A DNA stretch of 64,000 bases from a virus (lineage: Duplodnaviria > Heunggongvirae > Uroviricota > Caudoviricetes > Demerecviridae). The translations under genes were made by a program, and so were the position numbers. The stretch spans positions 7,425 to 71,424 of the IMG/VR virus record IMGVR_UViG_2974599810_000001. The stretch is one strand, 5' to 3'. Below are positions 21,138 through 33,407 of the stretch, one piece after another. The notes beneath the pieces are model-generated. The model saw nothing but the letters and a program-made list of their open reading frames with translations, was not told the DNA's origin and did not search any database. Numbering within the stretch: the first letter of the stretch is position 1; every line of letters starts with the position of its first letter.

Positions 21138-21213
21138 TGGTAGTTAGTAGTGGATTTGAACCACTGTAGTCGCTCCGTATGAAGGAGGTGCATAACCACT
21201 CTGCCAACTAACT
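21138..21213 (-). tRNA. tRNA anticodon CAU (Met or Ile2-lysidine)
   Basis: Cloverleaf folded by hand: acceptor AGTTAGT/ACTAACT, T-loop TTCAAAT, anticodon loop TTCATAC, CCA encoded. Confidence 0.65.
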
Positions 21214-21309
21214 GTTATGTTTTACTAGACTAAGTAAGTATTCTTTATACTCTTTAGACCAATTAGCTTTTTTAAACTTTCCTGGACGCATAGTCTTAAT
21301 TCCTAAATT

Positions 21310-21386
21310 TGGTACTCCGGGAGGGATTTAAACCCCCGATCTCTCGGTTATCAGCCGAGTGCTTTAGATCGCTAAGCTACCGAAGC
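21310..21386 (-). tRNA. tRNA-Ile (GAU)
   Basis: Acceptor GCTTCGG/CCGGAGT (2 G-U), anticodon arm CTCGG-CTGATAA-CCGAG, T-arm GGGGG-TTTAAAT-CCCTC. Confidence 0.65.
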
Positions 21387-21387
21387 A

Positions 21388-21615
21388 TTAATATTTAATT
21401 GCAGAACGTTTACCATTTCTAGGCGCACCTGGAAGTCGTGCACGTTCTGCCATTCTTCGCTTAATCTTTGAGATATTTTCTAGTATTTGTTCTTCAGGCT
21501 TAATACCTGAAACACTACACCACTGATTACCATCCCATGCGGTAATGATCATAACACCATTACCCATAATCTTTTCTGTGAAAGTAATTCTCATTATAGC
21601 AACTCGTCTAAGCAA
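21388..21615 (-). CDS. hypothetical protein (75 aa)
   Basis: ORF. Confidence 0.4.
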   Translation of the reverse strand: MLRRVAIMRITFTEKIMGNGVMIITAWDGNQWCSVSGIKPEEQILENISKIKRRMAERARLPGAPRNGKRSAIKY

Positions 21616-21887
21616 GAGGTATATTTAAGTTTACCATCTTTATCTACTTTGATTTCGACTTCCGCTCGTGGTACTTGACGAACTACACCATGAATCATCT
21701 TATAGCGAATGCCTTTAGCTGGTTCACGATCTTTTGGAAATACTTGCTTAACCGTTACTACCTTGAAACCCTCACGCGGTGTTAACACTACTACTTGATC
21801 ACCTTCTTTGATTTTCCAAGAAGATGGAAATTCATATGTATAGCGTTGACCACCAGTTTGGAACACAACAGAAAGATAACGTTTCAT
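21594..21887 (-). CDS. hypothetical protein (97 aa)
   Basis: ORF downstream of the promoter at 21918. Confidence 0.45.
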   Translation of the reverse strand: MKRYLSVVFQTGGQRYTYEFPSSWKIKEGDQVVVLTPREGFKVVTVKQVFPKDREPAKGIRYKMIHGVVRQVPRAEVEIKVDKDGKLKYTSCLDELL

Positions 21888-21917
21888 TTGGTTTCCCTCT
21901 CATTAATTTATATAAAT

Positions 21918-21946
21918 ATTATAACAAGAAATAAGAGAGAAAGCAA
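21918..21946 (-). promoter_or_regulatory. conserved early promoter (TTGCTT-17-TATAAT)
   Basis: Hexamers seen. Confidence 0.65.
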
Positions 21947-22136
21947 ATGAATTTTTAATAAAGTTTAGTCACTTCATAAACTATACTACGAGATTCTTTA
22001 TTACGTTGTATTAAATTAGCATATGCTTCTTCAGCTTCATTTTTAGTATTAAAGTCTATAACGTGAGAGGTATTAGCTCTATTTGATTGGCTATACCAGA
22101 TAACTACTAGGAGTTTAAACATACTAGTCCTTAAAT

Positions 22137-22223
22137 TGGTGCTGGGCACAGGATTCGAACCTGCAACGGGATTACTCCTCCTGATTACAAATCAGGTGCA
22201 TTCAACCATTCTGCCAACCCAGC
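22137..22223 (-). tRNA. tRNA with anticodon UGU (Thr) and a 15-nt variable arm carrying a GGA-GTAA-TCC mini-hairpin
   Basis: Acceptor GCTGGGT/GCCCAGC, anticodon arm CCTGA-TTTGTAA-TCAGG, T-arm GCAGG-TTCGAAT-CCTGT, CCA encoded; 87 nt. Confidence 0.55.
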
Positions 22224-22388
22224 AGAACCCGTTATTTCAACGGGATTTCTTTTTCAATAACAGGAGACTTATCAGTCATGACTGCCATTGCCATTTGTTG
22301 TAGAAACTCAAAGGTGAAGGCTACACGTTCTTCACCAATCTCTACTTCTACACGTTTCTTTTGTTTATCGATCTTGACTTTTAGGTTA

Positions 22389-22610
22389 TCAGCCATCTTC
22401 GGGTTCTCGTTGCTGCGCTACTTCTAGCCAGTCTGGTAGAAGAAACTTTGTACGAAATTCTTCGTAAGTTTCTTTGGGATAAAAGCTAAAACCTCCTTTC
22501 TCGTCATTCAGGATAACAGAGCCGTCAGTTTGTTCGTATGCTCGGTATGTTTCTCCAATAACAATAACTCGTTTATCGGTACTTTTATTACGAAATTCAA
22601 AAACGTGCAT
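22389..22610 (-). CDS. hypothetical protein (73 aa)
   Basis: ORF between tRNAs. Confidence 0.4.
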   Translation of the reverse strand: MHVFEFRNKSTDKRVIVIGETYRAYEQTDGSVILNDEKGGFSFYPKETYEEFRTKFLLPDWLEVAQQREPEDG

Positions 22611-22625
22611 AACGTTTCCTTAAAG

Positions 22626-22702
22626 TTGGAGCGGCTAGAGGGAATCGAACCCTACTCAGCGAGGCTTGGAAGGCCTGCGACACAACCCGTGTGCTTAACC
22701 GC
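22626..22702 (-). tRNA. tRNA-Gly (UCC)
   Basis: Acceptor GCGGTTA/TAGCCGC, anticodon loop CTTCCAA, T-arm AGGG-TTCGATT-CCCT. Confidence 0.6.
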
Positions 22703-22710
22703 TTATTGTT

Positions 22711-22786
22711 TGGCTGGAGAAGGAGGAATCGAACCTACCATTAACGGAGTCAAAGGCCGTTGTGCTAACCGTTACACTACTCTCCA
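22711..22786 (-). tRNA. tRNA-Gln (UUG)
   Basis: U1-A72 and G73 (as in E. coli tRNA-Gln); anticodon loop CTTTGAC. Confidence 0.65.
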
Positions 22787-22792
22787 ATTATT

Positions 22793-22868
22793 TGGCTGGA
22801 GTGCCTGGGATCGAACCAGGAACCTTCGGAGTCAGAGGCCGACGATCTGCCAATTGATCTACACTCCA
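22793..22868 (-). tRNA. tRNA-Gln (CUG)
   Basis: Acceptor TGGAGTG/CACTCCA, G73, anticodon loop CTCTGAC, T-arm CCTGG-TTCGATC-CCAGG. Confidence 0.7.
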
Positions 22869-22876
22869 ATAACCCT

Positions 22877-23077
22877 TTACTCTACAGGAACCGTGGCGAT
22901 TGGTTCTGGATCTTCTAAACGTTTGCCTTCATGATCTACTCGAATAACTCCGCATCCTTCGCAAATCACAACAGCACCGTAGCCTTCTTTAACTTCAGCT
23001 TCTGTAATCAAACCAGAAAGATCACCAGTATCTCTGCCCCACATATCAATGGAGCATTGTTTGCAGAAATCAGCCAT
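22877..23077 (-). CDS. zinc-ribbon protein (66 aa; CxxC..CxxC)
   Basis: CKQC and CEGC pairs. Confidence 0.4.
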   Translation of the reverse strand: MADFCKQCSIDMWGRDTGDLSGLITEAEVKEGYGAVVICEGCGVIRVDHEGKRLEDPEPIATVPVE

Positions 23078-23102
23078 ATTTTATTTCCTATTTAAGTTAA
23101 TT

Positions 23103-23179
23103 TGGGGTGGCTAGTGGAATTCGAATCCACATAGGCCTGATTCACAATCAGGATCATTAACCAATTATGATATAGCCAC
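23103..23179 (-). tRNA. tRNA-His (GUG)
   Basis: Perfect acceptor GTGGCTA/TAGCCAC, C73, anticodon loop TTGTGAA, T-arm GTGGA-TTCGAAT-TCCAC; no encoded G-1. Confidence 0.7.
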
Positions 23180-23548
23180 AATTGAAAACTCGCAGGGTTA
23201 GCGAAACCTTCCTCAATTAGCATGTTCTAGAATACTAATCAAGTTATCTCCTATTGCACGCAGCTCAAGACGAGTACGAATTTTCAATTGTGGCGGCTCT
23301 CCGAAACTCTTCTACCCTAGCCTTAGCAGCTTACTCCCGAACGCATGTCGGGGAAGTCTTACTAAGAGCATCAAATAGCACCGTTACACTTTGAGCCATA
23401 GATATATCAAGAAGCAGAAGGACTTGAACCTTCACGAGATAGACCATTTATCTCAGCCGCTTTATGAGGTATGTTGCAAGGAGTGGATGTTCCTTATAAA
23501 CCTTTTAGGCAGCCCCGTCTACCGATTCCGGCATACTTCAAGAATTAT

Positions 23549-23752
23549 TTAAAACTTGTAACCTTCAGGAACCTTATCTTTAACACCGTCATATTTAGCC
23601 TGAATGTAGTAGTCAGGTACATGATCTTTCGGCAGATTCTTATTAGTATCATGAACTTCAGCTCTAGCTTCTTCTTCAGAATCAAAACCACGATACCAGA
23701 TTTCACCACCCCAACCACGTTCGCTTTCGGTATACTTAACAATGTGTTTCAT
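23549..23752 (-). CDS. hypothetical acidic protein (67 aa)
   Basis: RBS AAGGAAAA upstream; protein-like composition. Confidence 0.5.
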   Translation of the reverse strand: MKHIVKYTESERGWGGEIWYRGFDSEEEARAEVHDTNKNLPKDHVPDYYIQAKYDGVKDKVPEGYKF

Positions 23753-23770
23753 AAGGTTTTCCTTATTAGT

Positions 23771-23865
23771 TGGAGGTAGGTAAGGGGATCGAACCCTTAC
23801 ACCGTATCACTACGATCAACCGATTTCAAGTCGGAGTCCAGCGCCAGCCATTGGATTGACCTACC
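23771..23865 (-). tRNA. tRNA-Ser (UGA), class II
   Basis: Acceptor GGTAGGT/ACCTACC, anticodon loop CTTGAAA, long variable arm, T-arm AAGGG-TTCGATC-CCCTT. Confidence 0.6.
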
Positions 23866-23877
23866 ATATAAGTTGTT

Positions 23878-23968
23878 TGGCGGAAGAGGAGAGATTTGAA
23901 CTCTCAAGCCGTTTTACCAGTCAGCCACTTTCCAAGCGGTTTTCGTCACCAATTCGATTTGCTCTTCC
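23878..23968 (-). tRNA. tRNA-Ser (GGA), class II
   Basis: Acceptor GGAAGAG/CTCTTCC, anticodon arm ACCGC-TTGGAAA-GTGGC (like E. coli serV), T-arm GAGAG-TTCAAAT-CTCTC. Confidence 0.6.
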
Positions 23969-24081
23969 AATAATAAGATGATGCCTCTATCACACCAGGC
24001 AGTTACGCCTCGCTGGGATTCGAACCCATTAAAACAGCTCAACCGAGATAGTAGGTTTAATTTACTCTGACCATCAAATTT

Positions 24082-24158
24082 GGTGCGTGACAAGGGATTC
24101 GAACCCTCAAAACCCGACTTCTAAGGACGGTATGTATGCCAATTCCATCAATCACGCA
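24082..24158 (-). tRNA. tRNA with anticodon UAG (Leu) but class-I architecture (5-nt variable loop GTTTT)
   Basis: Acceptor GCGTGAT/GTCACGC, A73, anticodon arm CCGTC-CTTAGAA-GTCGG (one U-U), T-arm GAGGG-TTCGAAT-CCCTT. Confidence 0.55.
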
Positions 24159-24163
24159 TGTTT

Positions 24164-24242
24164 GGTGGAGAATAACGGAATCGAACCGTTCTGATGTCCT
24201 CGGTGCAAGCGAGGTGTCCACTCCATGCAGACCCATTCCCCA
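24164..24242 (-). tRNA. tRNA-Ala (UGC)
   Basis: Acceptor GGGGAAT/ATTCTCC with G3-U70, anticodon arm CCTCG-CTTGCAC-CGAGG, T-arm AACGG-TTCGATT-CCGTT. Confidence 0.65.
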
Positions 24243-24479
24243 AATTCTTTAGTTTACTAAGGCTATTAGCTCGGCGTAACTACAGCACCTTCGCTTCAAG
24301 CGGAAGGAACCGCGTCATCTCGCAAACCCGATACACTATTCAGTTGCCGCTGAATCTAGTGGACTAATCTAGAACTTCTCCCGAATCGTAGGGATCGTGC
24401 TTTTTGGCAGCCAGTCCTAGGTCGAGCTAATACCTTAGTGAACTATGATGAGGATTTCTCCTCATCAATTTATATAAAT

Positions 24480-24509
24480 ATTATAACAAGAAATTAAGCA
24501 TCAAGCAAG
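24480..24509 (-). promoter_or_regulatory. conserved early promoter driving the ncRNA plus tRNA cluster (Ala..Ser) leftward
   Basis: TTGCTT-18-TATAAT on minus strand overlapping the 3' end of gene 24501..24869; leader forms the hairpin TGATGAGGA-gaaa-TCCTCATCA. Confidence 0.55.
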
Positions 24510-24869
24510 TACATTTTTAGCGATTTCTTGTAGTTCCTTTACATCACGAACGTAAAGGTAATCAGAGCTTCCAGAGTGCATACTTTGCATAACCACACCT
24601 TCATCTGGTGCATTATCCTTCAGAGTAATTCCTAACCAGAACTCGGCAAAACTAGGTGTTACCTCACCTTGACTTGCCTTGAACACATCATATTCTGTAA
24701 TTTCTTGACCAGTAGATAAACCCAAATAGGCAGAACTAAGATCAATCTCTTTATGAGACTCATAAAATTCCGACAGATCTTTTTCCATATCCCAGCCATG
24801 CTGTAACGCGAACTCCATTGTCACATGACCGAAATAACCTTGAATCTTGCTTGATAATTGCATTTGCAA
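24501..24869 (-). CDS. hypothetical protein (122 aa)
   Basis: ORF. Confidence 0.5.
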   Translation of the reverse strand: MQMQLSSKIQGYFGHVTMEFALQHGWDMEKDLSEFYESHKEIDLSSAYLGLSTGQEITEYDVFKASQGEVTPSFAEFWLGITLKDNAPDEGVVMQSMHSGSSDYLYVRDVKELQEIAKNVLA

Positions 24870-24888
24870 TTCCTTACTTTGAGTTAAT

Positions 24889-24962
24889 TGGTACTCGGTG
24901 ATAGAATCGAACTATCGCAACCGCCGTGTAAAGACGGGGTTCTCCCATTAAACTAACCGAGC
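24889..24962 (-). tRNA. tRNA-Val (UAC)
   Basis: Acceptor GCTCGGT/ACCGAGT, anticodon arm CCGTC-TTTACAC-GGCGG, T-arm ATAG-TTCGATT-CTAT. Confidence 0.6.
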
Positions 24963-24966
24963 AATT

Positions 24967-25045
24967 TGGTAGACCGCCTGGGACTCGAACCCAGAACCTT
25001 CCGATTAAAAGTCGGATGCTACTAAACCTATTGAGCTAGCGATCT
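24967..25045 (-). tRNA. tRNA-Lys (UUU)
   Basis: Anticodon arm TCCGA-CTTTTAA-TCGGA, T-arm CTGGG-TTCGAGT-CCCAG. Confidence 0.6.
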
Positions 25046-25234
25046 ATTAGTAACCATTATATACTTCTTTAATAGAGTGAACTTTCAAGTAAGGGTGATT
25101 AGTATTAAATTCTACCATTACTTCATCCCAATTTTTACCATAATGAGCAAGTAAGGATTTTGATGTATTCTTACCTGAACGTTTGTCACTTACTACTAAT
25201 CGAAATACTTTCATTTCGAAATCCTCTATTAAAA

Positions 25235-25312
25235 TGGAAGCGGGTGTAGGAATCGAACCTACCTCTTTCTAGCTTATGAGACTAGCGATCTCTACCAGAG
25301 ATCTAACCCGCA
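25235..25312 (-). tRNA. tRNA anticodon CAU (Met/Ile2) with a U1-U72 mismatch and a 6-bp D-stem
   Basis: Anticodon arm CTAGT-CTCATAA-GCTAG, T-arm GTAGG-TTCGATT-CCTAC, CCA encoded. Confidence 0.55.
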
Positions 25313-25318
25313 ATTGTT

Positions 25319-25394
25319 TGGTCAGTGCGGCAGGACTCGAACCTGCGACCCGAAGCATCCAAGGCTCCCACGCTACCAACTGCGCTACGCACTG
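25319..25394 (-). tRNA. tRNA-Pro (UGG)
   Basis: Acceptor CAGTGCG/CGCACTG, anticodon arm GGAGC-CTTGGAT-GCTTC, T-arm GCAGG-TTCGAGT-CCTGC. Confidence 0.65.
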
Positions 25395-25424
25395 TTAATT
25401 TTGTTAACTCACTTTATAAAATAT

Positions 25425-25453
25425 ATTATACAGATAATTAAGCAGAATAGCAA
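25425..25453 (-). promoter_or_regulatory. conserved early promoter driving the tRNA-Pro/Met/Lys/Val cluster
   Basis: TTGCTA-17-TATAAT on minus strand. Confidence 0.6.
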
Positions 25454-25599
25454 ATGAATTTTTAATAAATTTACTTATTGTGTAGGCCACCTGGAGGCTA
25501 TCAACCCCACGGCTGACAAAGAAGTTTGCGAGACCTCTCTTAAATGCCAGAATAGACCCGCCGATCTACCGGAACCTACATAATAAGTAAACTTTATAG

Positions 25600-25725
25600 T
25601 GTCATTCTAGACAGGACTCGAACCTGTTATCACTTGTGCGGACTTACGAGAACCATTCTTTCACTCGAATCGAACGAGCTTCTGCCCTCGCCAAGCTGGT
25701 TTCCCCATCAACCACGCTAGAATGT
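25600..25725 (-). ncRNA. tRNA-like element of about 121 nt (ATTCTAG..CTAGAAT acceptor-like pairing, D-arm-like and canonical T-arm ACAGG-TTCGAGT-CCTGT) with about 45 extra nt in the anticodon region
   Basis: Folded by hand; an internal second T-arm-like hairpin GCTCG-TTCGATT-CGAGT; not a canonical tRNA. Confidence 0.35.
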
Positions 25726-25845
25726 TTGATTGTTTTCAGTGCAAGAGTCCGAGTCTTGGACACGACCGCTTCGCAAGTACATAGGCAGCTTATCATGAGT
25801 CGGCACTTCCGAATTGCTAGCTCCGTGTTCTGCACTGAAATTTTG

Positions 25846-26193
25846 TTAATTTAATAGTAAAGTACGATCTACTTCACCATTAATTGTTCGGCATTCTTCT
25901 GGGATTGCTGGGGTGGCCTTGTATTCCCACCACTCAGAACCATCATATTCACCACGTTCTAACCAAGTCCCATCAGTAAACCACACGTTACCATAAAGCA
26001 ATTGCCCACCATAACCAGAATCATATTTAAAGTCTAGATTATTTAGAAAATCTTCAATATCTTTTTCTGTATAACCTACTGGTAATACCCAAACTTCTTT
26101 GTTCCCATAATAACCGAATTCTATCTTAATACACTTAACTTCAGACTTAGTATTCTTTAGGGCAAGTAACAATTCTTCTTTAGCATTAATCAT
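25846..26193 (-). CDS. hypothetical protein (115 aa)
   Basis: ORF. Confidence 0.5.
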   Translation of the reverse strand: MINAKEELLLALKNTKSEVKCIKIEFGYYGNKEVWVLPVGYTEKDIEDFLNNLDFKYDSGYGGQLLYGNVWFTDGTWLERGEYDGSEWWEYKATPAIPEECRTINGEVDRTLLLN

Positions 26194-26219
26194 AGCATAT
26201 TTCCCGTGCTAGTTTAATT

Positions 26220-26296
26220 TGGCGCGACCGATGGGATTCGAACCCACATTCTCTCCCGTGACAGGGGAGTACCATTACCAAGCCAGCCCCGGTCGC
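26220..26296 (-). tRNA. tRNA-Asp (GUC)
   Basis: Acceptor GCGACCG/CGGTCGC, G73, anticodon arm CTCCC-CTGTCAC-GGGAG, T-arm ATGGG-TTCGAAT-CCCAT. Confidence 0.7.
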
Positions 26297-26305
26297 ATAA
26301 TTCAT

Positions 26306-26491
26306 TTACTCAGCTTTGAGTTTTTCAATAGCTGCATTAAGTTCCTTAAGAAACTCTTTTCGTACATTAAGACGATTAAGACTTACTAGTATATCATGTT
26401 TAAGTTCTTCGATGTATTTCTTCTCAACTTCAATATTGTTGATAGTGCTATCACGATGAACTTCTAGCTGCGCAATTACATTCTTGGACAT
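26306..26491 (-). CDS. small coiled-coil protein (61 aa)
   Basis: ORF. Confidence 0.35.
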   Translation of the reverse strand: MSKNVIAQLEVHRDSTINNIEVEKKYIEELKHDILVSLNRLNVRKEFLKELNAAIEKLKAE

Positions 26492-26593
26492 GCTTGTTTC
26501 CTCAGTTATTAATGAAAATGGTATCTGTGTCTGAATTCGATGTCAGCAATGATAGCTGGTTGGCTACCGGTTTACTTAACTCTACACAGAATT

Positions 26594-26676
26594 TGGCGGG
26601 CCGTGTAGGATTCGAACCTACGTTGTCTTTCGACATGGATTAACAGTCCACCGCCAAACCGCTTGGCTAACGACCC
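26594..26676 (-). tRNA. tRNA-Asn (GUU) with a 13-nt variable arm containing a GTC-GAAA-GAC tetraloop hairpin
   Basis: Acceptor GGGTCGT/ACGGCCC, anticodon arm GTGGA-CTGTTAA-TCCAT, T-arm GTAGG-TTCGAAT-CCTAC; 83 nt. Confidence 0.55.
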
Positions 26677-26828
26677 TAAATTTATATTGCTGACTAGGAT
26701 TTTCACCTAGACGGAGTTAGCACCGTAGCGTGTAGCGGCATACCTCTCCAAACCGTGCCTCATCTTTCAATTACGGAGACAGTGTTCCTACGCGTGCCTG
26801 AATTGATTTAACAATTCTTTCAGCAAAT

Positions 26829-26904: not shown

Positions 26905-26952
26905 ATTTATCTTGTTCTGTCATGTTGCTTCTCCAGTTCAATTTATGTAATT

Positions 26953-26981: not shown

Positions 26982-27261
26982 CTACATTTTTTAAGAATTT
27001 GATGCCTTTCTTTTTCTTCTTATATTTCCATGTTAAGGGATTCTGTCGATTATGAACGCTTGAGATCTTCGTCTCGTCAAAGTTCTTCAATATCATGTAA
27101 TCACAAGATAATTGTTCTAGTGGAATGTGATCACCGTCAAAAGCGTATACATAAGGCTGTTGACTAGCACGATAATGATAGACTTTGTTAATTCTACGTT
27201 TCAGCGACTTATCAGCGCAGTAAATAAAGAAGTTTTCAGGATGCATCAGCAGCTCCTTCAA
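26974..27261 (-). CDS. hypothetical basic protein (95 aa)
   Basis: ORF. Confidence 0.45.
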   Translation of the reverse strand: MKELLMHPENFFIYCADKSLKRRINKVYHYRASQQPYVYAFDGDHIPLEQLSCDYMILKNFDETKISSVHNRQNPLTWKYKKKKKGIKFLKNVVA

Positions 27262-27263
27262 TT

Positions 27264-27338
27264 TGGTGCACCCTGTTCGAATCGAACGAACCTCTCAAGC
27301 TCTTCAGGCAAGCGCTAATCCATCTCAGCTAAAGGTGC
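27264..27338 (-). tRNA. tRNA-Phe-like (GAA); anticodon stem contains two U-U mismatches
   Basis: Acceptor GCACCTT/AGGGTGC, A73, anticodon loop CTGAAGA, T-arm GTTCG-TTCGATT-CGAAC. Confidence 0.45.
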
Positions 27339-27344
27339 AAATTT

Positions 27345-27421
27345 TGGCAAACCTACTAGGACTCGAACCTAGACCGTACGGTTTTGGAGACCGACATGCT
27401 GTCCAGTAACACTCTAGGAAT
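27345..27421 (-). tRNA. tRNA-Trp-like (CCA); acceptor stem has two U-U mismatches (possible pseudogene)
   Basis: Anticodon arm TCGGT-CTCCAAA-ACCGT, D-arm GTGT..GCAT, T-arm CTAGG-TTCGAGT-CCTAG, G73, CCA encoded. Confidence 0.45.
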
Positions 27422-27429
27422 GCAGAAAT

Positions 27430-27506
27430 TGGCGTCCTGTGCGGGGATCGAACCCGCAAATCCTACCTTGAAAGGGTAGTGACTTTACCAGTTTGTCTAA
27501 CAGGAC
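27430..27506 (-). tRNA. tRNA-Glu (UUC)
   Basis: Acceptor GTCCTGT/ACAGGAC, anticodon arm CTACC-CTTTCAA-GGTAG, T-arm GCGGG-TTCGATC-CCCGC. Confidence 0.7.
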
Positions 27507-27512
27507 TTAAAT

Positions 27513-27600
27513 TGGTGGGGAAAGATGGAGTCGAACCACCCGAGTCGCAATGACAACTGATTTACAGTCAGCTCTGCTACCACTTACAGAATATTTCCCC
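27513..27600 (-). tRNA. tRNA-Tyr (GUA), class II
   Basis: Acceptor GGGGAAA/TTTCCCC, A73, anticodon arm GCTGA-CTGTAAA-TCAGT, long variable arm, T-arm GGTGG-TTCGACT-CCATC. Confidence 0.65.
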
Positions 27601-27731
27601 ATATTTAGAAGTATTCAAAAAATTCTAATTTAAACACTTTTAAATATGTTTCCAAATTAGATAAATATTATACCAAGTTTTAAGGCACTGAGCAAGTCAA
27701 ATTTTAAAGAACTTGCTCAGTGCTGTATTAG

Positions 27732-28007
27732 TTAGTCGAACTTAGGAGTGACAGTTAAGGAAAACGGAAGTTCGAAAACTTCTTCCCCCTCATCACTAAC
27801 AGTAATTACACGACCTTTAAGTTCAGACATTGAAATATCAATATCAGCTTTTGCATCTGGAGCCATGCCAGCTTCAATACATTTAGCTTTAATTTCCGGC
27901 AGAAGTTCTACATCGTAGAAATAAAGCCATTCAATCTCACCTTCCCAGCCTTCCCAGGATTTACAGATTGCACTTTCAATACCAGCTGCTATAACACGAT
28001 TTTGCAT
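27732..28007 (-). CDS. hypothetical acidic protein (91 aa)
   Basis: ORF downstream of the promoter at 28038. Confidence 0.45.
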   Translation of the reverse strand: MQNRVIAAGIESAICKSWEGWEGEIEWLYFYDVELLPEIKAKCIEAGMAPDAKADIDISMSELKGRVITVSDEGEEVFELPFSLTVTPKFD

Positions 28008-28037
28008 TCGTTAACTCCTTCATCAATTTATATAACT

Positions 28038-28067
28038 ATTATATCAGAAATTTAAAGCAAAAGGCAA
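28038..28067 (-). promoter_or_regulatory. early promoter (TTGCCT-18-TATAAT)
   Basis: Hexamers seen. Confidence 0.5.
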
Positions 28068-28097
28068 GTACATTTTTAAAAATTCTGTTTGGAGGAG

Positions 28098-28304
28098 CTA
28101 AACTCCAGATTCTTCAGCCAAGTCTAGACTAATAAGAGATATAGCCATAATTGCCGCTCCATGCTCTTTTTCTCCAGTCTCTTTAGCTAGAGTTATAATG
28201 TCAAGAAATTGCTTATGAAAATCTGCAACCTCTTGAGTTATACCTGCCTCAGCAATCATGCCTTTAAGCATGAAACGTTGCGCTGTAATTTCAGGATTAG
28301 CCAT
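28098..28304 (-). CDS. hypothetical protein (68 aa)
   Basis: ORF. Confidence 0.4.
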   Translation of the reverse strand: MANPEITAQRFMLKGMIAEAGITQEVADFHKQFLDIITLAKETGEKEHGAAIMAISLISLDLAEESGV

Positions 28305-28479
28305 ATTGTTTCTCCAGTTTCATCTTTAATAGTCTACAAATAAAATCAATGTCTTCATCCGTGCCTAGATCTCTGTCTTCAAGAGTTGCCTTGAAGTTTT
28401 TAGTCAATTCCATGAGAATAACTTCTCTAGAACGACGTGTTGGCGGAGGTGGATGTCTATACATCTTATTTCCTTAATT

Positions 28480-28556
28480 TGGTAGGGGTGGTGGGATTCG
28501 AACCCACAAAACCTGAATTTTAAGTCCAGTACCTATGCCAATTCGATTACACCCCC
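28480..28556 (-). tRNA. tRNA with anticodon UAA (Leu) but class-I architecture (variable loop GTTTT)
   Basis: Acceptor GGGGGTG/CACCCCT, A73, anticodon arm CTGGA-CTTAAAA-TTCAG, T-arm GTGGG-TTCGAAT-CCCAC. Confidence 0.55.
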
Positions 28557-28563
28557 GTGTAGT

Positions 28564-28752
28564 TTAGTCAATTACTTTTGAGGCTTCAAGGTAGTCGATA
28601 TAGTGTACGTTTTCTACCGTAATCATATAATCCGCCACTTTATCCATAGCTTGGGCTTCAGAGGTAGCTCTGGCTAACCTATATCCTTTTTTATATTCAT
28701 CCGGGTATTCTCTATCTTGAATAAACACAACATAAACTATATATAGATCCAT
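28564..28752 (-). CDS. hypothetical protein (62 aa)
   Basis: ORF. Confidence 0.4.
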   Translation of the reverse strand: MDLYIVYVVFIQDREYPDEYKKGYRLARATSEAQAMDKVADYMITVENVHYIDYLEASKVID

Positions 28753-28770
28753 TTGTGACCTCTATTTAAT

Positions 28771-28848
28771 TGGTGGCTCCCCGAGGATTCGAACCTACGT
28801 ACCTTCCGGTTATGAGCCGGGTGCTCATACCATATGAGCTTGAGAACC
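28771..28848 (-). tRNA. tRNA anticodon CAU (third CAU species; T-stem imperfect)
   Basis: Acceptor GGTTCTC/GGGAGCC, D-arm GCTCATA..TATGAGC, anticodon arm CCCGG-CTCATAA-CCGG. Confidence 0.45.
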
Positions 28849-28854
28849 AAAATC

Positions 28855-28943
28855 TGGCGGAAGAAGTGGGAATCGAACCCACAAGGCTATATTTCAAACC
28901 GACAGATTAGCAATCTGCTGCAATACCGTTATGCTATTCTTCC
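28855..28943 (-). tRNA. tRNA-Ser (GCU), class II
   Basis: Acceptor GGAAGAA/TTCTTCC, G73, anticodon arm GCAGA-TTGCTAA-TCTGT, 19-nt variable arm, T-arm GTGGG-TTCGATT-CCCAC. Confidence 0.65.
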
Positions 28944-28964
28944 GAATTTATAAGATATATTATA

Positions 28965-29483
28965 TTAGAAATTTAGCTTCATAGCAAGAAAATTTTTCAA
29001 GTTTTCGGTAGACATCTCATCCACATCTACAGGAGAAACAAAGCCGTTTAATTTTCTAGCAAATTTTTCACCATCGGGATCATTGTCCCCGACAGCTACC
29101 AATTTAAAAGGTAGTAATTTCAGTTGCTTTAATAACGCTTTTCCTGGAGAAGAACCCAACATTGCCAGGGCTGGATAACCCGCATTATGTAACGCAACTG
29201 CCTTAAATACAGATTCAGCAATCAATACTACTTTTTCATCTCCATTGAGAGTTTCTAGTCCCCATACACACTGTGTAGTAGAGTAGGTAAAATATTTAGC
29301 CTCAAAGGGGCATTTACCATGCCCTTTTGGAGCAGAAGGATTATACGTCTGATAGCCCCTCAACATCCCAGAGAAGTCATACAATGGGACTGTTAGCCAC
29401 CCTTCCGGGCTTAACCAGCAATGATATTTATCTGTATCAAATCCTCTAGATAAGAGGTGCTGTGTTAGCTCATCAACATTCAT
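28965..29483 (-). CDS. Toprim-domain protein (about 173 aa from the MNVDEL start)
   Basis: LVAVGDNDPDGEKFA (Toprim DxD) and AESVFKAVAL motifs; internal Met with RBS GAGAGAGGAA; start coordinate +/-1. Confidence 0.5.
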   Translation of the reverse strand: MNVDELTQHLLSRGFDTDKYHCWLSPEGWLTVPLYDFSGMLRGYQTYNPSAPKGHGKCPFEAKYFTYSTTQCVWGLETLNGDEKVVLIAESVFKAVALHNAGYPALAMLGSSPGKALLKQLKLLPFKLVAVGDNDPDGEKFARKLNGFVSPVDVDEMSTENLKNFLAMKLNF

Positions 29484-29514
29484 ATCTGATTCCTCTCTCA
29501 AATTTATAGATATA

Positions 29515-29543
29515 TTATACAGAGAATTTAGCATTCAAGCAAT
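29515..29543 (-). promoter_or_regulatory. conserved early promoter (TTGCTT-17-TATAAT)
   Basis: Hexamers seen. Confidence 0.6.
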
Positions 29544-29660
29544 CAAAATTTTTAATTTTTTAGAGAAAAATCATAGGGCACTTAAGGGTAGCGGATAAGT
29601 GGTGAGGACCAAAATTTGTGACCCCACTAAAAATCCGGGGGCAATTTTTAAAGACCCCTT

Positions 29661-29689
29661 GACATTTTCGCTGGGGTAGTGTAAAGTAT
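29661..29689 (+). promoter_or_regulatory. plus-strand sigma70 promoter (TTGACA-17-TAAAGT) for the low-complexity cassette
   Basis: Consensus -35 with a plausible -10; followed by AGGAGGTG RBS and ATG at 29750. Confidence 0.55.
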
Positions 29690-29749
29690 ATGTTATGGAT
29701 GAGTGATCAAAGAGACACACATTTTCTATATACTAGGAGGTGTCAAAAA

Positions 29750-30742
29750 ATGACAGAAGAAGTAGCTAAGAGTCCTGAGACCGTCGCTAGCGTTGCAGCA
29801 GAACTGCACCGTCACGAGGAATCAGATAAGAAAAAGTGGGAGAAGGTCAGAGCCTACGAAGAGAAACATCGTGAACACGATGAAGATGATGAAGAAGATG
29901 ACGATGATGAGTATTGTCATAAATATGGAAAACGTAAAATGCAAGAACCAGTAAACGTATTCACTAGTGGCTTCCCTGGCCTAATGGGTGGTTACCCAGC
30001 AAACGCAGGTGCTTTTGGTGGTGAAGGTATGGGTCTATTCGGAGCTATCCTAATCGGTGCTCTATTAACAGGCGGATTCGGTGGTTTCGGTGGATTCGGT
30101 GGACGTGGTGTAGTTGGTGATGGTACCGCAGTTGATGCAGTACTTCAGAACCAAGATACCGCTAGTATTCTAGCAGCTATTAACACTACTCGTACAGAAG
30201 CTAATCAGGGTACTGGAGCTGTTTTAAGCGCAGTTAACAATGGTTTTAGCCAGACATCCCAAAACCAGAGCCGTGATACTCAGTCTGTACTAACTACGAT
30301 CTATGGTACAGGTGCTAATCTGTCTAATCAGATCTGTCAGGAAACTCGCAACGTTATTCAGGGTCAGTTCGATCTTTCTCGCCAGATTGATCAATCTTTC
30401 GCAGCTAACCAGATAGCTCGTGCGCAAGATAAGTTTGATTCTGCACAGATCGCTTTCCAGCAGACTTTACAAACTAATAACCAGTTTGCCGCTGTTCAGG
30501 CTCAGATGTGTGCTAACCAGAACTCTCTGGAACGTCAGATCGCTGAATGTTGCTGTGAACTTCAGACTGCGATCGCTGGTGTAACTACTGCGCGTATCCA
30601 GGATGAGTTAGACGCATGTCGCCTACGTGAAGCAATCGCTGCGGGTAGCGGTGCTAACGGTCAGGTAATTAATCAAATCGCTTTAAGTCTTGGTGCTATC
30701 ACTCAGACTCTGGCTGGTCTGCAGGCTAAACTGCCGGCTTAA
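29750..30742 (+). CDS. low-complexity protein (330 aa): acidic N-terminus (DEDDEEDDDDE), glycine-zipper/TM-like segment (GLFGAILIGALLTGGFGGFGGFGG), long Q/N/A/S/T-rich C-terminal region
   Basis: ATG at 29750 with AGGAGGTG RBS, in frame with listed ORF 29690..; host-optimal codons (CTG, CGT, GGT, CAG). Confidence 0.6.
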   Translation: MTEEVAKSPETVASVAAELHRHEESDKKKWEKVRAYEEKHREHDEDDEEDDDDEYCHKYGKRKMQEPVNVFTSGFPGLMGGYPANAGAFGGEGMGLFGAILIGALLTGGFGGFGGFGGRGVVGDGTAVDAVLQNQDTASILAAINTTRTEANQGTGAVLSAVNNGFSQTSQNQSRDTQSVLTTIYGTGANLSNQICQETRNVIQGQFDLSRQIDQSFAANQIARAQDKFDSAQIAFQQTLQTNNQFAAVQAQMCANQNSLERQIAECCCELQTAIAGVTTARIQDELDACRLREAIAAGSGANGQVINQIALSLGAITQTLAGLQAKLPA

Positions 30743-30763
30743 TATTAAGGGGAGGAGCCCATT

Positions 30764-31192
30764 ATGAGTAAATATGGTTTTGTAAATAACGGACTTAATC
30801 AAAGTATGGGCTCCCAGCAGCCCATTCCGGGTCTAGATAACCCCTACTTACAACAATTGCAACAGCGTTTAGCAGAAGCGCAACAGATGCAGCAACAACT
30901 CCAGCAAAACCCTGGAAGTGTGAGTCCTATGCAAATGATGCAGCAAATGAATGGGCAGTCGCAAATGCCCCAACAAATGCAGCAACAGATGCAGCAACAG
31001 ATGCCGCAGCAGCAAGTTCAGCAACAAACCCAACAACCGCAGGTTTCTGCGGAAGGACAGGCAGTACTAGCCCTTTTCGAAGACTTCGCAAAGACAGAGG
31101 ATGGGAAGCAGCTTGTATCACTTATGGGTAAGTTTAATAGCTTCTGCCAAAGCCAAGTTGCAAAAGCTCAAAATGGTGGTAATAACTCCTAA
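30764..31192 (+). CDS. polyQ/M-rich protein (142 aa; QQMQQQMQQQMPQQQVQQQTQQPQ)
   Basis: RBS GGGGAGGAG upstream; extreme Q content. Confidence 0.55.
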   Translation: MSKYGFVNNGLNQSMGSQQPIPGLDNPYLQQLQQRLAEAQQMQQQLQQNPGSVSPMQMMQQMNGQSQMPQQMQQQMQQQMPQQQVQQQTQQPQVSAEGQAVLALFEDFAKTEDGKQLVSLMGKFNSFCQSQVAKAQNGGNNS

Positions 31193-31201
31193 GGAGGAAT
31201 T

Positions 31202-31396
31202 ATGTGTTGCAGAAAATCTGTTTCGTGCTGCCCAATGCCTGTAGCACGTTGTTGCTCTTCAGCAATGTTTACACAAATACCGGCGTTCAATCCGTTTGCC
31301 TTTAAGCCTACTCTTATCCTGCCCCCTAGAGTAGATTTTCAGTCAAGGTTGGCCTCCCGTATGGGTGGTTGCTGTAATAAGAGTATATGGTTCTAA
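31202..31396 (+). CDS. small Cys-rich protein (64 aa; four CC doublets)
   Basis: RBS AAGGAGGAA upstream; MCCRKSVSCCPMPVARCCSS..GGCCNK. Confidence 0.45.
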   Translation: MCCRKSVSCCPMPVARCCSSAMFTQIPAFNPFAFKPTLILPPRVDFQSRLASRMGGCCNKSIWF

Positions 31397-31409
31397 AGAA
31401 CCAAACAAT

Positions 31410-31445
31410 AAAGCCCCTAGTCGAAAGACTTAGGGGCTTTTCTTT
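31410..31445 (+). terminator. rho-independent terminator (AAGCCCCTAG..CTAGGGGCTT + TTTCTTTT)
   Basis: Perfect 10-bp stem plus T-run closing the plus-strand cassette. Confidence 0.7.
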
Positions 31446-31460
31446 TATCTTAAATACAGA

Positions 31461-31495
31461 AAAACCCTGCGCTCTTCAGGGAACGCAGGGCTTAC
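31461..31495 (-). terminator. rho-independent terminator for the minus-strand SPFH gene (GCCCTGCG..CGCAGGG + T-run)
   Basis: Hairpin plus TTTTTC on minus strand; faces the plus-strand terminator. Confidence 0.6.
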
Positions 31496-31516
31496 TTCAG
31501 ATGTTACATGCGGGTA

Positions 31517-32464
31517 TTATTTATTACGCATATCCATGATCATTTGACCATCGTAGCCAGTACCTACCACAGTCTGGGGTACACCACCTTGATATTTCTG
31601 AGCACGAATCATTTCGACTTCCAGTTGCTTCCAGCGAATCATCTCAGGAGTAATGGTACGTTGTAATGCGGCGTTAGCTTCAGCTTCTTTCTTAGCTGCG
31701 TATAGTTTAGCATCTGCGTCACGTTCATTGGCAATAGCTTGGTTGTTGCGGGCTTCACGATCTGCTTCTGCTTGTTTAACTTTTTGCTGTGCTTCCTGCT
31801 CAACACGAGCTAATTCAGCTTTAGCAGCATTAACCTGTTCTTCACGAACTTTGGTATTCTGTACCTGTTCCATGATTACCGGTGGCAAAGTAATATCCTG
31901 AAGGAACACCTGCTTAACTGTGTAACCATATGGGCGTGCGTACTCTTCAACTTCCTGTTGAATTGCAGTTTGCAATTGAGCCTGAATTTTAGCATCAAAC
32001 AAATCTTGTGCTTTAGGTACAGACTTACCAAACTCACGAATAGTAGACAGTAATTTTTCAGTTACATATTTGTCTAACGCTTGATCCTGAGTACCTGCAT
32101 TAATACGGTTAATCGGTGCCTTAGAACCATCAAACTGCAACATAACAGTCAGGTCAACAGTGGATTTAAACTTATCCTGACTAGGAACCTGAAGTTTATC
32201 TAATTTTAGAGCAATATCTTTTGTACTAAAAGTATCGAAAGAAGCAAAAGGATTTACAATATGAAAGCCGGGTAATACTGGATTAGGGTCTACTTTACCC
32301 AGGAAAGTCTGGGTTTTAACAGTACCGTCTTGAACAACAGTATAGGAGTTAAGGGCCAGAACTAAACCTACCAAACCAACTGCAGCACCAATACCCCAAC
32401 GTTTGATATTACGCATCAATTTTTGCTCATAAGTCAGTTCTTTAGTGTTTTTAGTAGCAAACAT
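31517..32464 (-). CDS. SPFH/band-7 (prohibitin/HflK/C-like) membrane protein
   Basis: N-terminal TM, then YTVVQDGTV..FLGKV..LPGFHI..PF band-7 core, long coiled-coil C-terminus. Confidence 0.7.
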   Translation of the reverse strand: MFATKNTKELTYEQKLMRNIKRWGIGAAVGLVGLVLALNSYTVVQDGTVKTQTFLGKVDPNPVLPGFHIVNPFASFDTFSTKDIALKLDKLQVPSQDKFKSTVDLTVMLQFDGSKAPINRINAGTQDQALDKYVTEKLLSTIREFGKSVPKAQDLFDAKIQAQLQTAIQQEVEEYARPYGYTVKQVFLQDITLPPVIMEQVQNTKVREEQVNAAKAELARVEQEAQQKVKQAEADREARNNQAIANERDADAKLYAAKKEAEANAALQRTITPEMIRWKQLEVEMIRAQKYQGGVPQTVVGTGYDGQMIMDMRNK

Positions 32465-32498
32465 ATATTTCCTTTGTTTTAGTTACAGTTAATAAAAT

Positions 32499-32573
32499 TG
32501 GCCGAGGTGACAGGATTCGAACCTGCATAAAGGAATTTAGAAGACTCCTGCCTCTCCCTTAGACTACACCCCG
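32499..32573 (-). tRNA. tRNA-Arg (UCU)
   Basis: Acceptor CGGGGTG/CACCTCG, G73, anticodon arm GGAGT-CTTCTAA-ATTCC, T-arm GCAGG-TTCGAAT-CCTGT. Confidence 0.65.
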
Positions 32574-33399: not shown

Positions 33400-33407
33400 A
33401 TAAATTT

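Follow-up and report, generated by a model that had tools for sequence, protein, structure and literature searches.

The closest described counterpart of the locus studied here is the transfer RNA (tRNA) region of bacteriophage T5 (NC_005859, genes T5t01–T5t25), whose record lists 25 tRNAs with amber-suppressor notes, eight stable RNAs and named promoters. Three of the T5 tRNAs, those for Lys, Thr and Asn, jointly neutralise AriB, the nuclease of PARIS (PMC12409363; PMC11464382). We analysed a 64,000-nucleotide (nt) window of a Demerecviridae genome (positions 7,425–71,424 of IMG/VR record IMGVR_UViG_2974599810_000001), in which an initial annotation, made from the letters alone, had described a large tRNA array with several non-canonical members. 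By megablast, window positions 21000–33000 are 100% identical to Salmonella phage L6jm (MN956514 / NC_048852; Demerecviridae, Tequintavirus), and well over 100 T5-like phages match the same interval at 95–98%. Window positions are used throughout and equal L6jm record positions minus 7424. The array lies at the same position and on the same strand as the T5 tRNA region and shares its gene order, flanking genes and promoters; this synteny, together with the identity to a Tequintavirus, bears out the proposal of a T5/BF23-type array.

We consider it highly probable that the L6jm array is a T5-like phage tRNA region that is mosaic with respect to T5, and that its odd members are functional, selected variants and not products of decay, a reading that draws on sequence comparison and on analogy with T5. 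The array comprises 26 genes between 21138 and 32573, all on the minus strand and each with an encoded CCA, and all 20 amino acids are represented. ARAGORN at its default threshold reports 22 tRNAs, Rfam at its gathering threshold likewise reports 22, and the union of the two is 23; the full set is obtained with ARAGORN at a relaxed threshold (-ps85/90), which gives exactly 26. The proposed number (about 26), the outer coordinates and all anticodons and types are thereby recovered without change. ARAGORN finds a cloverleaf, as defined by a 7-base-pair acceptor stem, a 5-base-pair T stem, a GTTCRA-type T loop and a 7-nt anticodon loop with U33, in 26/26 genes, and the Rfam gathering score is reached by 23/26 (Ala in a small-window scan). 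All 26 retain the CCA, an intact T loop, a 7-nt anticodon loop and the discriminator expected for the anticodon, and the members flagged as odd occur identically in dozens to hundreds of phage records. The genes are as follows.

21138–21213, minus strand: tRNA-Met(CAU), elongator type, 76 nt (ARAGORN; Rfam 51.5 bits; 100% identical to T5 tRNAM(CAU))
21310–21386, minus strand: tRNA-Ile(GAU), 77 nt (ARAGORN; Rfam 64.7 bits; 99% identical to T5 tRNAI1)
22137–22223, minus strand: tRNA-Thr(UGU), 87 nt, 15-nt variable arm (ARAGORN; Rfam 58.9 bits; 60% identical to T5 Thr)
22627–22702, minus strand: tRNA-Gly(UCC), 76 nt, atypical (relaxed ARAGORN only; 100% identical to T5 tRNAG1)
22711–22786, minus strand: tRNA-Gln(UUG), 76 nt (ARAGORN; Rfam 50 bits; T5 allele different, 62% identity)
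22793–22868, minus strand: tRNA-Gln(CUG), 76 nt (ARAGORN; Rfam 58.5 bits; T5 allele different, 59% identity)
23103–23179, minus strand: tRNA-His(GUG), 77 nt, C73, no G-1 (ARAGORN; Rfam; identical to T5 gene)
23771–23865, minus strand: tRNA-Ser(UGA), 95 nt, class II, U73 (relaxed ARAGORN; identical gene annotated tRNA-Ser in T5_ev212)
23878–23968, minus strand: tRNA-Ser(GGA), 91 nt, class II (relaxed ARAGORN; identical gene annotated tRNA-Ser in T5_ev212)
24081–24157, minus strand: tRNA-Leu(UAG), 77 nt, class-I shape, A73 (ARAGORN; Rfam 47.5 bits; T5 slot holds an 85-nt class-II allele)
24163–24241, minus strand: tRNA-Ala(UGC), 79 nt (ARAGORN; Rfam 36.3 bits in a small-window scan; T5 allele 75 nt)
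24889–24962, minus strand: tRNA-Val(UAC), 74 nt (ARAGORN; Rfam; 96% identical to T5)
24967–25045, minus strand: tRNA-Lys(UUU), 79 nt (ARAGORN; Rfam; 70% identical to the PARIS-resistant T5 allele)
25235–25312, minus strand: tRNA(CAU), initiator type, 78 nt, U1·U72 (ARAGORN; Rfam; 99% identical to T5 tRNAfM)
25319–25394, minus strand: tRNA-Pro(UGG), 76 nt (ARAGORN; Rfam; T5 allele different, 64% identity)
26220–26296, minus strand: tRNA-Asp(GUC), 77 nt (ARAGORN; Rfam; 99% identical to T5)
26594–26676, minus strand: tRNA-Asn(GUU), 83 nt, 13-nt variable arm, G73 (ARAGORN; Rfam; 64% identical to the 78-nt class-I T5 allele)
26829–26904, minus strand: tRNA-Cys(GCA), 76 nt (ARAGORN; Rfam; 100% identical to T5)
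27264–27338, minus strand: tRNA-Phe(GAA), 75 nt, tandem U·U (ARAGORN; Rfam; 99% identical to T5)
27345–27421, minus strand: tRNA-Trp(CCA), 77 nt, U·U mismatches (ARAGORN; Rfam 36.3 bits; T5 allele unrelated, 71 nt)
27430–27506, minus strand: tRNA-Glu(UUC), 77 nt (ARAGORN; Rfam; 97% identical to T5)
27513–27600, minus strand: tRNA-Tyr(GUA), class II, 88 nt counted from 27600 (ARAGORN gives 27599; Rfam hit ends at 27600)
28480–28556, minus strand: tRNA-Leu(UAA), 77 nt, class-I shape, A73 (ARAGORN; Rfam 57.4 bits; absent from T5)
28771–28848, minus strand: tRNA(CAU), 78 nt, homologue of T5 tRNA-Ile2 (Rfam 40.3 bits; relaxed ARAGORN; 97% identical to T5 tRNAI2(CAU))
28855–28943, minus strand: tRNA-Ser(GCU), 89 nt, class II (ARAGORN; Rfam; 100% identical to T5)
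32499–32573, minus strand: tRNA-Arg(UCU), 75 nt (ARAGORN; Rfam; 100% identical to T5)

The hand-drawn folds of the initial annotation hold, and its odd members show no pseudogene-like character. The one adjustment concerns tRNA-Tyr, whose 5′ end most probably lies one base further upstream, at 27600: with that G as its first base the acceptor stem has seven perfect pairs, as it does in the 88-nt T5 Tyr. The array itself is already known, being a T5-type tRNA region in a published genome with near-identical arrays annotated in relatives. The public L6jm records (NC_048852 / MN956514, record positions 28562–39997) carry no tRNA annotation in this region, only small hypothetical open reading frames (ORFs), and about 27 tRNA-type features are annotated in the corresponding region of T5_ev212 and other relatives; the GenBank and RefSeq entries for L6jm can thus be corrected by adding the tRNAs of the array.

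Comparison with T5 divides the array in two. Fourteen L6jm tRNAs are 92–100% identical to T5, including those for His, Phe, Gly, Cys and Arg and the initiator-type CAU tRNA, whereas 11 slots hold unrelated alleles (52–71% identity; Thr, both Gln, Ser UGA, Ser GGA, Leu UAG, Ala, Lys, Pro, Asn and Trp), and the Leu(UAA) gene is present in L6jm and absent from T5. At the slots of the odd L6jm Leu(UAG), Thr and Asn, the T5 genes are an 85-nt class-II Leu(UAG), a 75-nt class-I Thr and a 78-nt class-I Asn. Nearly all L6jm alleles recur in T5_ev212, with the exception of Tyr (69%). Judged by these alignments the array is a mosaic, and since T5 has other alleles at these slots, the odd L6jm forms are alternative alleles at fixed slots and not general to T5-like phages. 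Alternatively, the odd features could be tolerated, functionless drift that spreads between phage arrays by homing-endonuclease or recombinational exchange, with synthetases, EF-Tu and the ribosome neither needing the Leu arm nor suffering from a short extra hairpin. We regard this account as possible but on balance doubtful. In its favour, the T5 array contains the HNH endonuclease genes hegA, hegC and hegD (none is annotated in the L6jm region), and the same tRNA families are found in unrelated phage groups; further evidence on both sides comes from the individual tRNAs.

Both Leu tRNAs of the array had been described as having a class-I 5-nt variable loop, and the ARAGORN folds agree: Leu(UAG) and Leu(UAA), 77 nt each, have the variable loop GUUUU, a D stem of 3 base pairs (bp), an 11-nt D loop, GAAUUGGCAUA, and A73. 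Neither has a variable region of at least 10 nt with a stem-loop, the hallmark of class II. They are the only Leu tRNAs of the array, and their anticodons match UUA and CUA, which are among the most used Leu codons of the phage. Relatives of Leu(UAG) with 77–78 nt occur in Seunavirus PVP-SE1, Felixounavirus, Mydovirus, Vibrio phage River4 and Proteus phage 2, and Leu(UAA) is shared with T5_ev212, STG2 and Proteus phage 2. STG2 also encodes a class-I Leu(UAG), of 81 nt with a 9-nt variable region, UCUUCGGGU (15057–15137), a form midway between the class-II T5 allele and the arm-less L6jm one. The Leu(UAG) variable region thereby forms a graded series of 13 nt (T5), 9 nt (STG2) and 5 nt (L6jm), a gradation that speaks for drift.

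When 24 class-I Leu tRNAs of phages are aligned without gaps, pairing is found in 99% of stem cells and two-sided changes in 19/20 pairs; the covariation score is 1.01, compared with 0.28 for shuffled alignments (0/500 reach the observed value) and at most 0.18 when the partners are slid. No member of this set departs from A14, G18, U48 and A73, and A15 and G19 are at least 90% conserved. E. coli leucyl-tRNA synthetase (LeuRS) relies on A73, A14, A15–U48, G18G19 and A20a, and the long arm is dispensable to it (PMC9976931), the latter being a further point for drift. Every E. coli LeuRS determinant given in that source is present in both L6jm Leu tRNAs, which, though not class II, fit the predicted substrate of an E. 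coli-type LeuRS.

Short-loop tRNAs with a Leu anticodon are known from animal mitochondria, which have class-I tRNA-Leu, and from minimal E. coli tRNA-Leu variants; there too, recognition runs via A73, A14 and tertiary pairs between D and T loops, and the arm is not used (PMC9976931). The L6jm tRNAs differ from these in being phage genes that need a bacterial cytosolic LeuRS and stand beside class-II host Leu tRNAs, and in retaining a complete D arm of the Leu type and an ordinary T arm. Closer in setting are the tRNA clusters of the Mycobacterium mucogenicum group, where a short-loop Leu(UAG) is likewise part of a horizontally mobile array, there with an HNH endonuclease gene, although the host phylum and the sequence are different (PMC6582537). 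The short variable loop of this cluster-encoded Leu(TAG) is mentioned in one sentence, with no analysis (PMC6582537), and this passing mention was all that we found on phage class-I Leu tRNAs in the searchable literature.

The Thr(UGU) and Asn(GUU) tRNAs carry, as had been claimed, variable arms of 13–15 nt that close on GNRA tetraloops. In Thr the variable region is AGGAGUAAUCCCGUU (15 nt), folding as GGA-GUAA-UCC, and in Asn it is GUCGAAAGACAAC (13 nt), folding as GUC-GAAA-GAC. With a 3-bp stem and a GNRA loop each, both depart from the 4–5-nt variable loop of class I. The remainder of the Thr tRNA comprises a 3-bp D stem, an 11-nt D loop, G1–C72, C2–G71, G35, U36 and A73, and the Asn tRNA has G73, the GUU anticodon and an E. 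coli-like anticodon arm. The specific determinants of E. coli threonyl-tRNA synthetase (ThrRS) are G1–C72, C2–G71, G35 and U36. A survey of identity elements locates the ThrRS determinants in the acceptor stem and anticodon, and gives G34, U35, U36 and G73 for asparaginyl-tRNA synthetase (AsnRS; PMC9976931). The L6jm Thr and Asn tRNAs match the nucleotides predicted for ThrRS and AsnRS substrates.

Relatives of the Thr tRNA retain the arm, with loops GUAA, GCAA or GAAA. For the arm-bearing Asn form there are matches in 561 phage records, among them those of T4-like Klebsiella phages, Serratia X20, Proteus phage 2 and a Phapecoctavirus, and a pattern scan of IMG/VR yields at least 119 loci with at least 84 distinct sequences. 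Across 29 in-register Asn sequences, 87.9% of arm cells are paired, and the three inner pairs are maintained at 97–100% with many two-sided changes; the covariation score of the arm is 0.907, compared with 0.186 for shuffled sequences (0/500 reach it). A GNRA loop caps 48/85 Asn arms but only 3/60 Tyr arms, and 0.7% of shuffles. Because the helix covaries and a GNRA loop is far commoner (56%) than chance would give (0.7%), the Asn arm itself appears to be under selection, which argues against drift. RNAalifold, applied to full-length arm-bearing Asn sequences, did not call the arm helix, as the MAFFT alignment is ragged there, and was replaced by the ungapped in-register subset. Similar GAAA-capped mini-arms are found in an 87-nt Gly(UCC) of Vibrio phage River4 (16772–16858) and an 87-nt Trp(CCA) of Erwinia phage IT22 (52–138).

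The frequency of these shapes was estimated from a census of ARAGORN calls on IMG/VR loci picked by the Asn pattern. Both samples are rough: sample 1 (contigs with arm-bearing Asn; 1188 distinct tRNAs) is biased to such contigs, and sample 2 (contigs with canonical Asn; 678 tRNAs) is free of that bias. Short-loop Leu tRNAs make up 47/114 in sample 1 and 20/50 in sample 2, about 40%, and short loops in sample 2 are found in 0/47 Ser and 1/19 Tyr; the bacterial control for Leu is small (5 Leu). Taking both samples together, A73 is present in 58 of 67 short-loop Leu tRNAs, and in every one the variable loop ends in U. With a single pattern that accepts short and long variable regions, arm-bearing Asn was found at 19/120 viral loci (∼ 16% of pattern matches), compared with 1/139 matches in bacterial and archaeal genomes. 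Long variable regions in sample 1 occur in Thr(UGU) (8/34), Trp (5/37) and Cys (6/38), once in Lys(UUU) (1/48) and never in Thr(GGU/CGU) (0/15). The useful result of the census is that about 40% of the sampled phage Leu tRNAs are arm-less, and that a sizeable fraction of phage Asn(GUU) tRNAs has a short, covarying and mostly GNRA-capped arm that is nearly absent from cellular genomes. In the searchable literature, with subscription journals (among them the 1980s T5 tRNA sequencing) outside the search, we found no description of arm-bearing Asn or Thr tRNAs in phages. An eLife paper on anticodon-loop mutations does not treat variable arms, Leu or T5, and our literature search found no paper on phage L6jm itself.

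A long variable arm on a tRNA for Thr or Asn might also mean that these tRNAs are charged by the synthetases for Ser, Leu or Tyr (SerRS, LeuRS or TyrRS) and recode ACA or AAY, as nematode nev-tRNAs do. The D arm of Thr(UGU) is indeed class-II-like (3-bp stem, 11-nt loop), and this tRNA has A73. In the census, the nearest D arm belongs to Ser or Tyr for 8/12 arm-bearing Thr tRNAs, and the same is mostly true of arm-bearing Trp and Cys; for Asn, it holds in only 24/87. Origin of the arm-bearing tRNAs from class-II tRNAs by anticodon change was considered on these grounds; the evidence is suggestive for Thr, Trp and Cys and weak for Asn, and we did not build on it because the D-arm similarity could be structural convergence. 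The nematode nev-tRNAs (PMC3333845) are a precedent for recoding; they and the bacterial allo-tRNAs (PMC5389517) likewise combine a long variable arm with an anticodon other than Leu, Ser or Tyr. Those tRNAs are charged, or proposed to be charged, according to their class-II body and so miscode, whereas the phage Asn and Thr tRNAs keep the determinants of the synthetase for their own anticodon; the phage arm-bearing tRNAs also differ in having a standard 7/5 acceptor branch and an arm of just 3–4 bp with a GNRA loop. Thr keeps G1–C72, C2–G71, G35 and U36, and Asn keeps GUU and G73, the AsnRS set (PMC9976931). Moreover, ACA accounts for 24% of Thr codons and AAY for all Asn codons in phage genes, so recoding would damage every protein. 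It also counts against recoding that E. coli Ser tRNA arms are longer than 3 bp, that E. coli Ser tRNAs have G2–C71 where the L6jm Thr tRNA has C2–G71, and that TyrRS reads the anticodon. With the cognate determinants in place and such heavy use of the codons concerned, we judge recoding by a class-II synthetase to be extremely improbable.

Mismatched U·U pairs had been proposed in stems of the Phe tRNA, the Trp tRNA and one CAU tRNA, and they are seen at 28–42 and 29–41 in Phe, at 2–71, 3–70 and 27–43 in Trp, and at 1–72 in the CAU tRNA. The tandem U·U of the Phe anticodon stem is retained in Vibrio River4, Proteus phage 2 (U·U plus A·C) and Yersinia phiR2-01. Recognition of T5 tRNA-Phe by phenylalanyl-tRNA synthetase has been studied, according to PMC9976931. 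Trp has A1–U72, U2·U71, U3·U70, U27·U43 and G73; its ends, AUU...UUU, do not vary in Klebsiella Roth50 and Pectobacterium DU_PP_V, where pairs 4–7 and the T stem change compensatorily. Since the U·U pairs of Trp and Phe are fixed amid covarying neighbours, they are unlike drift. Neutral tolerance with exchange accounts for the spread of the odd forms, but not for the covariation of the arm, the GNRA bias or the fixed U·U pairs. The alternative Trp allele (T5 8178–8248; also in Salmonella phage rutana) has 71 nt and a much reduced D arm, and in T5 it escapes ARAGORN even at the relaxed threshold.

The mismatched CAU tRNA (25235–25312) combines U1·U72 with A11:U24, G2–C71, C3–G70 and discriminator U, and its anticodon stem (C–G, U–A, A–U, G–C, U·G) is without a run of three G–C pairs. 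Bacterial initiator tRNAs have a 1–72 mismatch, a purine11:pyrimidine24 pair and G–C pairs at 29–41, 30–40 and 31–39. The T5 record annotates the 99%-identical counterpart as initiator.

Several observations weigh against the reading of the odd members as functional variants. The tRNAs Gly(UCC), Ser(UGA) and Ser(GGA) are sub-threshold in Rfam and are called by ARAGORN only when relaxed; their best Rfam scores, obtained with the tRNA-Sec model, are 30.9, 37.6 and 22.9 bits, respectively. Ser(GGA) is the weakest of the 26 calls, and Gly(UCC) is atypical in having one spacer nucleotide, anticodon-stem mismatches and U73. The T5 record also notes that attempts to make amber suppressors failed for several of its tRNAs (Thr, Asn, Phe, Trp and others). 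These failed conversions are uninformative on the L6jm alleles; they do show that function has not been demonstrated in this way for every member.

The His tRNA raises a further difficulty. As had been noted, it has no encoded G-1: the base before G1 is T, and the discriminator is C73. This combination is present in 6/6 Demerecviridae examined, including divergent Vibrio and Proteus phages. The T5 record annotates a 5′ end 1 nt longer than the ARAGORN call, and among 60 IMG/VR phage His genes T-1/C73 is found in 19 and G-1/C73 in 22, a count blurred by ARAGORN sometimes taking G-1 as position 1. E. coli histidyl-tRNA synthetase (HisRS) depends strongly on G-1 (PMC9976931), and because of this the L6jm His tRNA may be a poor HisRS substrate unless its 5′ end is made otherwise. 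In some alpha-proteobacteria and their phages, tRNA-His likewise lacks G-1 (PMC9976931; PMC5389517); however, that tRNA has A73 and a co-evolved HisRS, whereas the T5-like His tRNA has C73 and enterobacterial hosts, whose HisRS (as shown for E. coli) uses the G-1:C73 pair. Within the same searchable literature we found no description of a C73 His tRNA without G-1 in enterobacterial phages.

The poor scores of Gly(UCC), Ser(UGA) and Ser(GGA) and the missing G-1 would be expected if some odd members were pseudogenes, or tRNA-like RNAs with a non-translational role as decoys, processing signals or regulators, and the region does contain homologues of the tRNA-like stable RNAs RNA1, RNA2, RNA3 and RNAX as well as a CCA-less element at 33075–33148. 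We nevertheless consider this very improbable. The CCA, T loops, 7-nt anticodon loops and expected discriminators are intact in 26/26, the flagged members are identical across dozens to hundreds of phage records, and the only Leu tRNAs of the array, which match the heavily used UUA and CUA, are the two class-I ones. In addition, the suppressor notes in the T5 record, which also cover T5 His (identical to the L6jm gene), describe T5 tRNAG1, identical to the L6jm Gly(UCC), as convertible to an effective amber suppressor.

In the Ala(UGC) tRNA, unflagged by the initial annotation, position 8 is G in place of U, the D arm is distorted and the variable loop has 7 nt; G3·U70 is nevertheless present. 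The 79-nt form is also found in STG2 and Proteus phage 2. A pseudogene was considered and rejected, as the gene scores 36.3 bits in a small Rfam scan; the large Rfam scans missed it because of their speed filters.

The last observation against the functional reading, at least as far as it involves defence, concerns AriB. The host targets of this nuclease are Lys(UUU), Thr(UGU) and Asn(GUU), which it cleaves at 40|41 in the motif U36AAUC|A, and its second subunit has been modelled facing the tRNA D loop (PMC12409363). Positions 36–41 of T5 Lys are UAAACC, and this allele is PARIS-resistant (PMC12409363); the T5 sequences read UAAGCA in Thr and UAAGUU in Asn. L6jm, a close relative of T5, encodes the same three isoacceptors, but its Thr and Asn read UAAUCA and UAAUCC, the host motifs in PMC12409363, and its Lys reads UAAUCG. 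Where the T5 Lys, Thr and Asn alleles have substitutions at 39–41 relative to the host, the mark of PARIS evasion, L6jm Thr and Asn have none and carry extra variable arms instead, and L6jm Lys differs at 41 only. Because they retain a host-like AriB motif, L6jm Thr and Asn cannot be assumed to be PARIS-resistant. We also considered that arm and anticodon-stem mutation might be alternative ways of escaping AriB. This is unsupported, as UAAUC is equally frequent in both groups of Thr(UGU) in the IMG/VR sample (6/12 with a long arm and 26/53 with a short loop); Asn is unusable for this comparison, the search pattern having fixed the UAAUC motif.

More generally, the odd features could be adaptations that escape host tRNA-targeting nucleases or toxins while the tRNAs are still charged by host synthetases: loss of the Leu arm would remove a handle for class-II-reading nucleases, and the added Asn and Thr arms and the Phe and Trp mismatches would block nucleases that dock on helices. 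This explanation is tentative, and we think it rather unlikely as it stands. In its favour, AriB attacks E. coli Thr(UGU) and Asn(GUU) as well as Lys(UUU), and the armed tRNAs of L6jm are two of these isoacceptors. Long regions in normally class-I tRNAs fall mainly on Asn, Thr(UGU), Trp and Cys and are absent from the other Thr isoacceptors of the census, arm-bearing Asn is largely viral by the counts given above, and the alleles of close relatives differ at just these slots. Cleavage of the tRNA-Tyr variable loop by Septu has been reported (PMC13096335). Against escape, the comparison made in Thr(UGU) showed no link between an arm and loss of the AriB motif, and Lys(UUU), the main AriB target, is almost never armed. 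We know of no bacterial nuclease that requires the Leu arm.

The arm on AriB target isoacceptors, its specificity for UGU among Thr tRNAs and the allele differences are compatible with an arms race against tRNA-targeting defences. One may speculate further, with some doubt, that the recurrent phage-specific architectures (arm-less Leu; GNRA-armed Asn and Thr and, elsewhere, Trp, Cys and Gly; the fixed tandem mismatches of Phe and Trp; His without G-1) have been selected such that synthetase identity is kept and surfaces read by nucleases or toxins are changed, with relatives swapping slot alleles in the course of the arms race. If the shapes were indeed counter-measures to tRNA-cleaving immunity, the present picture of point mutations in the anticodon loop and stem would extend to wholesale changes of architecture. 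In either case the odd members, conserved as they are, represent tRNA architectures found across phages, and they form natural, testable allele pairs with T5. The pairs differ at exactly the AriB target tRNAs and would be a ready-made test set.

If the odd members are functional variants, as we favour, the array would be transcribed by host RNA polymerase from T5-type early sigma-70 promoters, to judge from homology to the annotated T5 promoters, and the transcripts would be matured by host RNase P and 3′ nucleases, the encoded CCA making CCA addition unnecessary. Charging would fall to the host aminoacyl-tRNA synthetases; no synthetase gene is annotated within or beside the array. The arm-less Leu tRNAs keep the LeuRS determinants, and the arm-bearing Thr and Asn tRNAs those of ThrRS and AsnRS. 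The tandem mismatches of Phe and Trp and the missing G-1 of His are held fixed across Demerecviridae subfamilies. In the long ORFs of the window (39% G+C), UUA and CUA make up 26% and 19% of Leu codons, AGA 21% of Arg, ACA 24% of Thr and GGA 21% of Gly. These favoured codons match the anticodons UAA, UAG, UCU, UGU and UCC of the array, and the phage tRNAs would serve these preferred A/U-rich codons. By analogy with T5, for which this was shown against AriB, they may double as spares when host tRNAs are depleted.

All eight T5 stable RNAs (RNAI, RNAIII, RNA1, RNA2H, RNAIV, RNA2, RNA3 and RNAX) have homologues in L6jm. Seven of them, RNAIII, RNAI, RNA1, RNA2H, RNAIV, RNA2 and RNA3, are interspersed between the tRNA genes on the minus strand (23181–23542, 24261–24432, 25479–25724 and 26519–26591), and three of the seven are termed tRNA-like in the T5 record. 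The following features accompany the tRNA genes.

23181–23542, minus strand: homologues of T5 stable RNAs RNAIII (23181–23286), RNAI (23291–23397) and RNA1, tRNA-like (23398–23542) (blastn 99%, 90% and 87%)
25409–25472, minus strand: homologue of T5 early promoter P13a (blastn mapping of T5-annotated promoters)
33075–33148, minus strand: tRNA-like element without CCA, beyond the range covered by the initial annotation (Rfam tRNA model 35.1 bits in E-value mode; relaxed ARAGORN)

The RNA1 homologue contains a weak Rfam tRNA match (23409–23540, 25.2 bits), and the RNA2 homologue a CCA-less 68-nt cloverleaf (25655–25722). The element at 33075–33148 lies within the RNAX homologue (32574–33203), has an ambiguous anticodon loop and is annotated 'tRNA' in T5_ev212. 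By blastn, about nine T5-annotated promoters map onto the L6jm array, and a promoter scan places TTGCTA and TATAAT, 17 nt apart, at 25453–25425, 28987–28959 and 33399–33371, which are three of the mapped T5 promoter sites.

Small ORFs also separate the tRNA genes. Among the proteins encoded within the array or next to it, four, each on the minus strand, were noted. ORF76 (189 amino acids, 28965–29534), inside the array, is annotated 'DNA primase' and has a marginal Toprim_2 match (22.6 bits). RNase M5 shares the Toprim fold with AriB and OLD, nucleases that cut tRNA, and for ORF76 a role in RNA processing or anti-defence is conceivable. A SPFH/Band 7 protein annotated 'lipoprotein' (31517–32464, 63.6 bits) is encoded between tRNA-Ser(GCU) and tRNA-Arg. 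Directly upstream of the tRNA region, ORF82 (147 amino acids, 33408–33851) is annotated 'tRNA amidotransferase' and has a YqeY-like domain only, which scores below the Pfam cut-off (25.4 versus 27 bits). Just downstream of the array, a GrcA-like glycyl-radical protein is encoded at 20495–20863 (66.4 bits).

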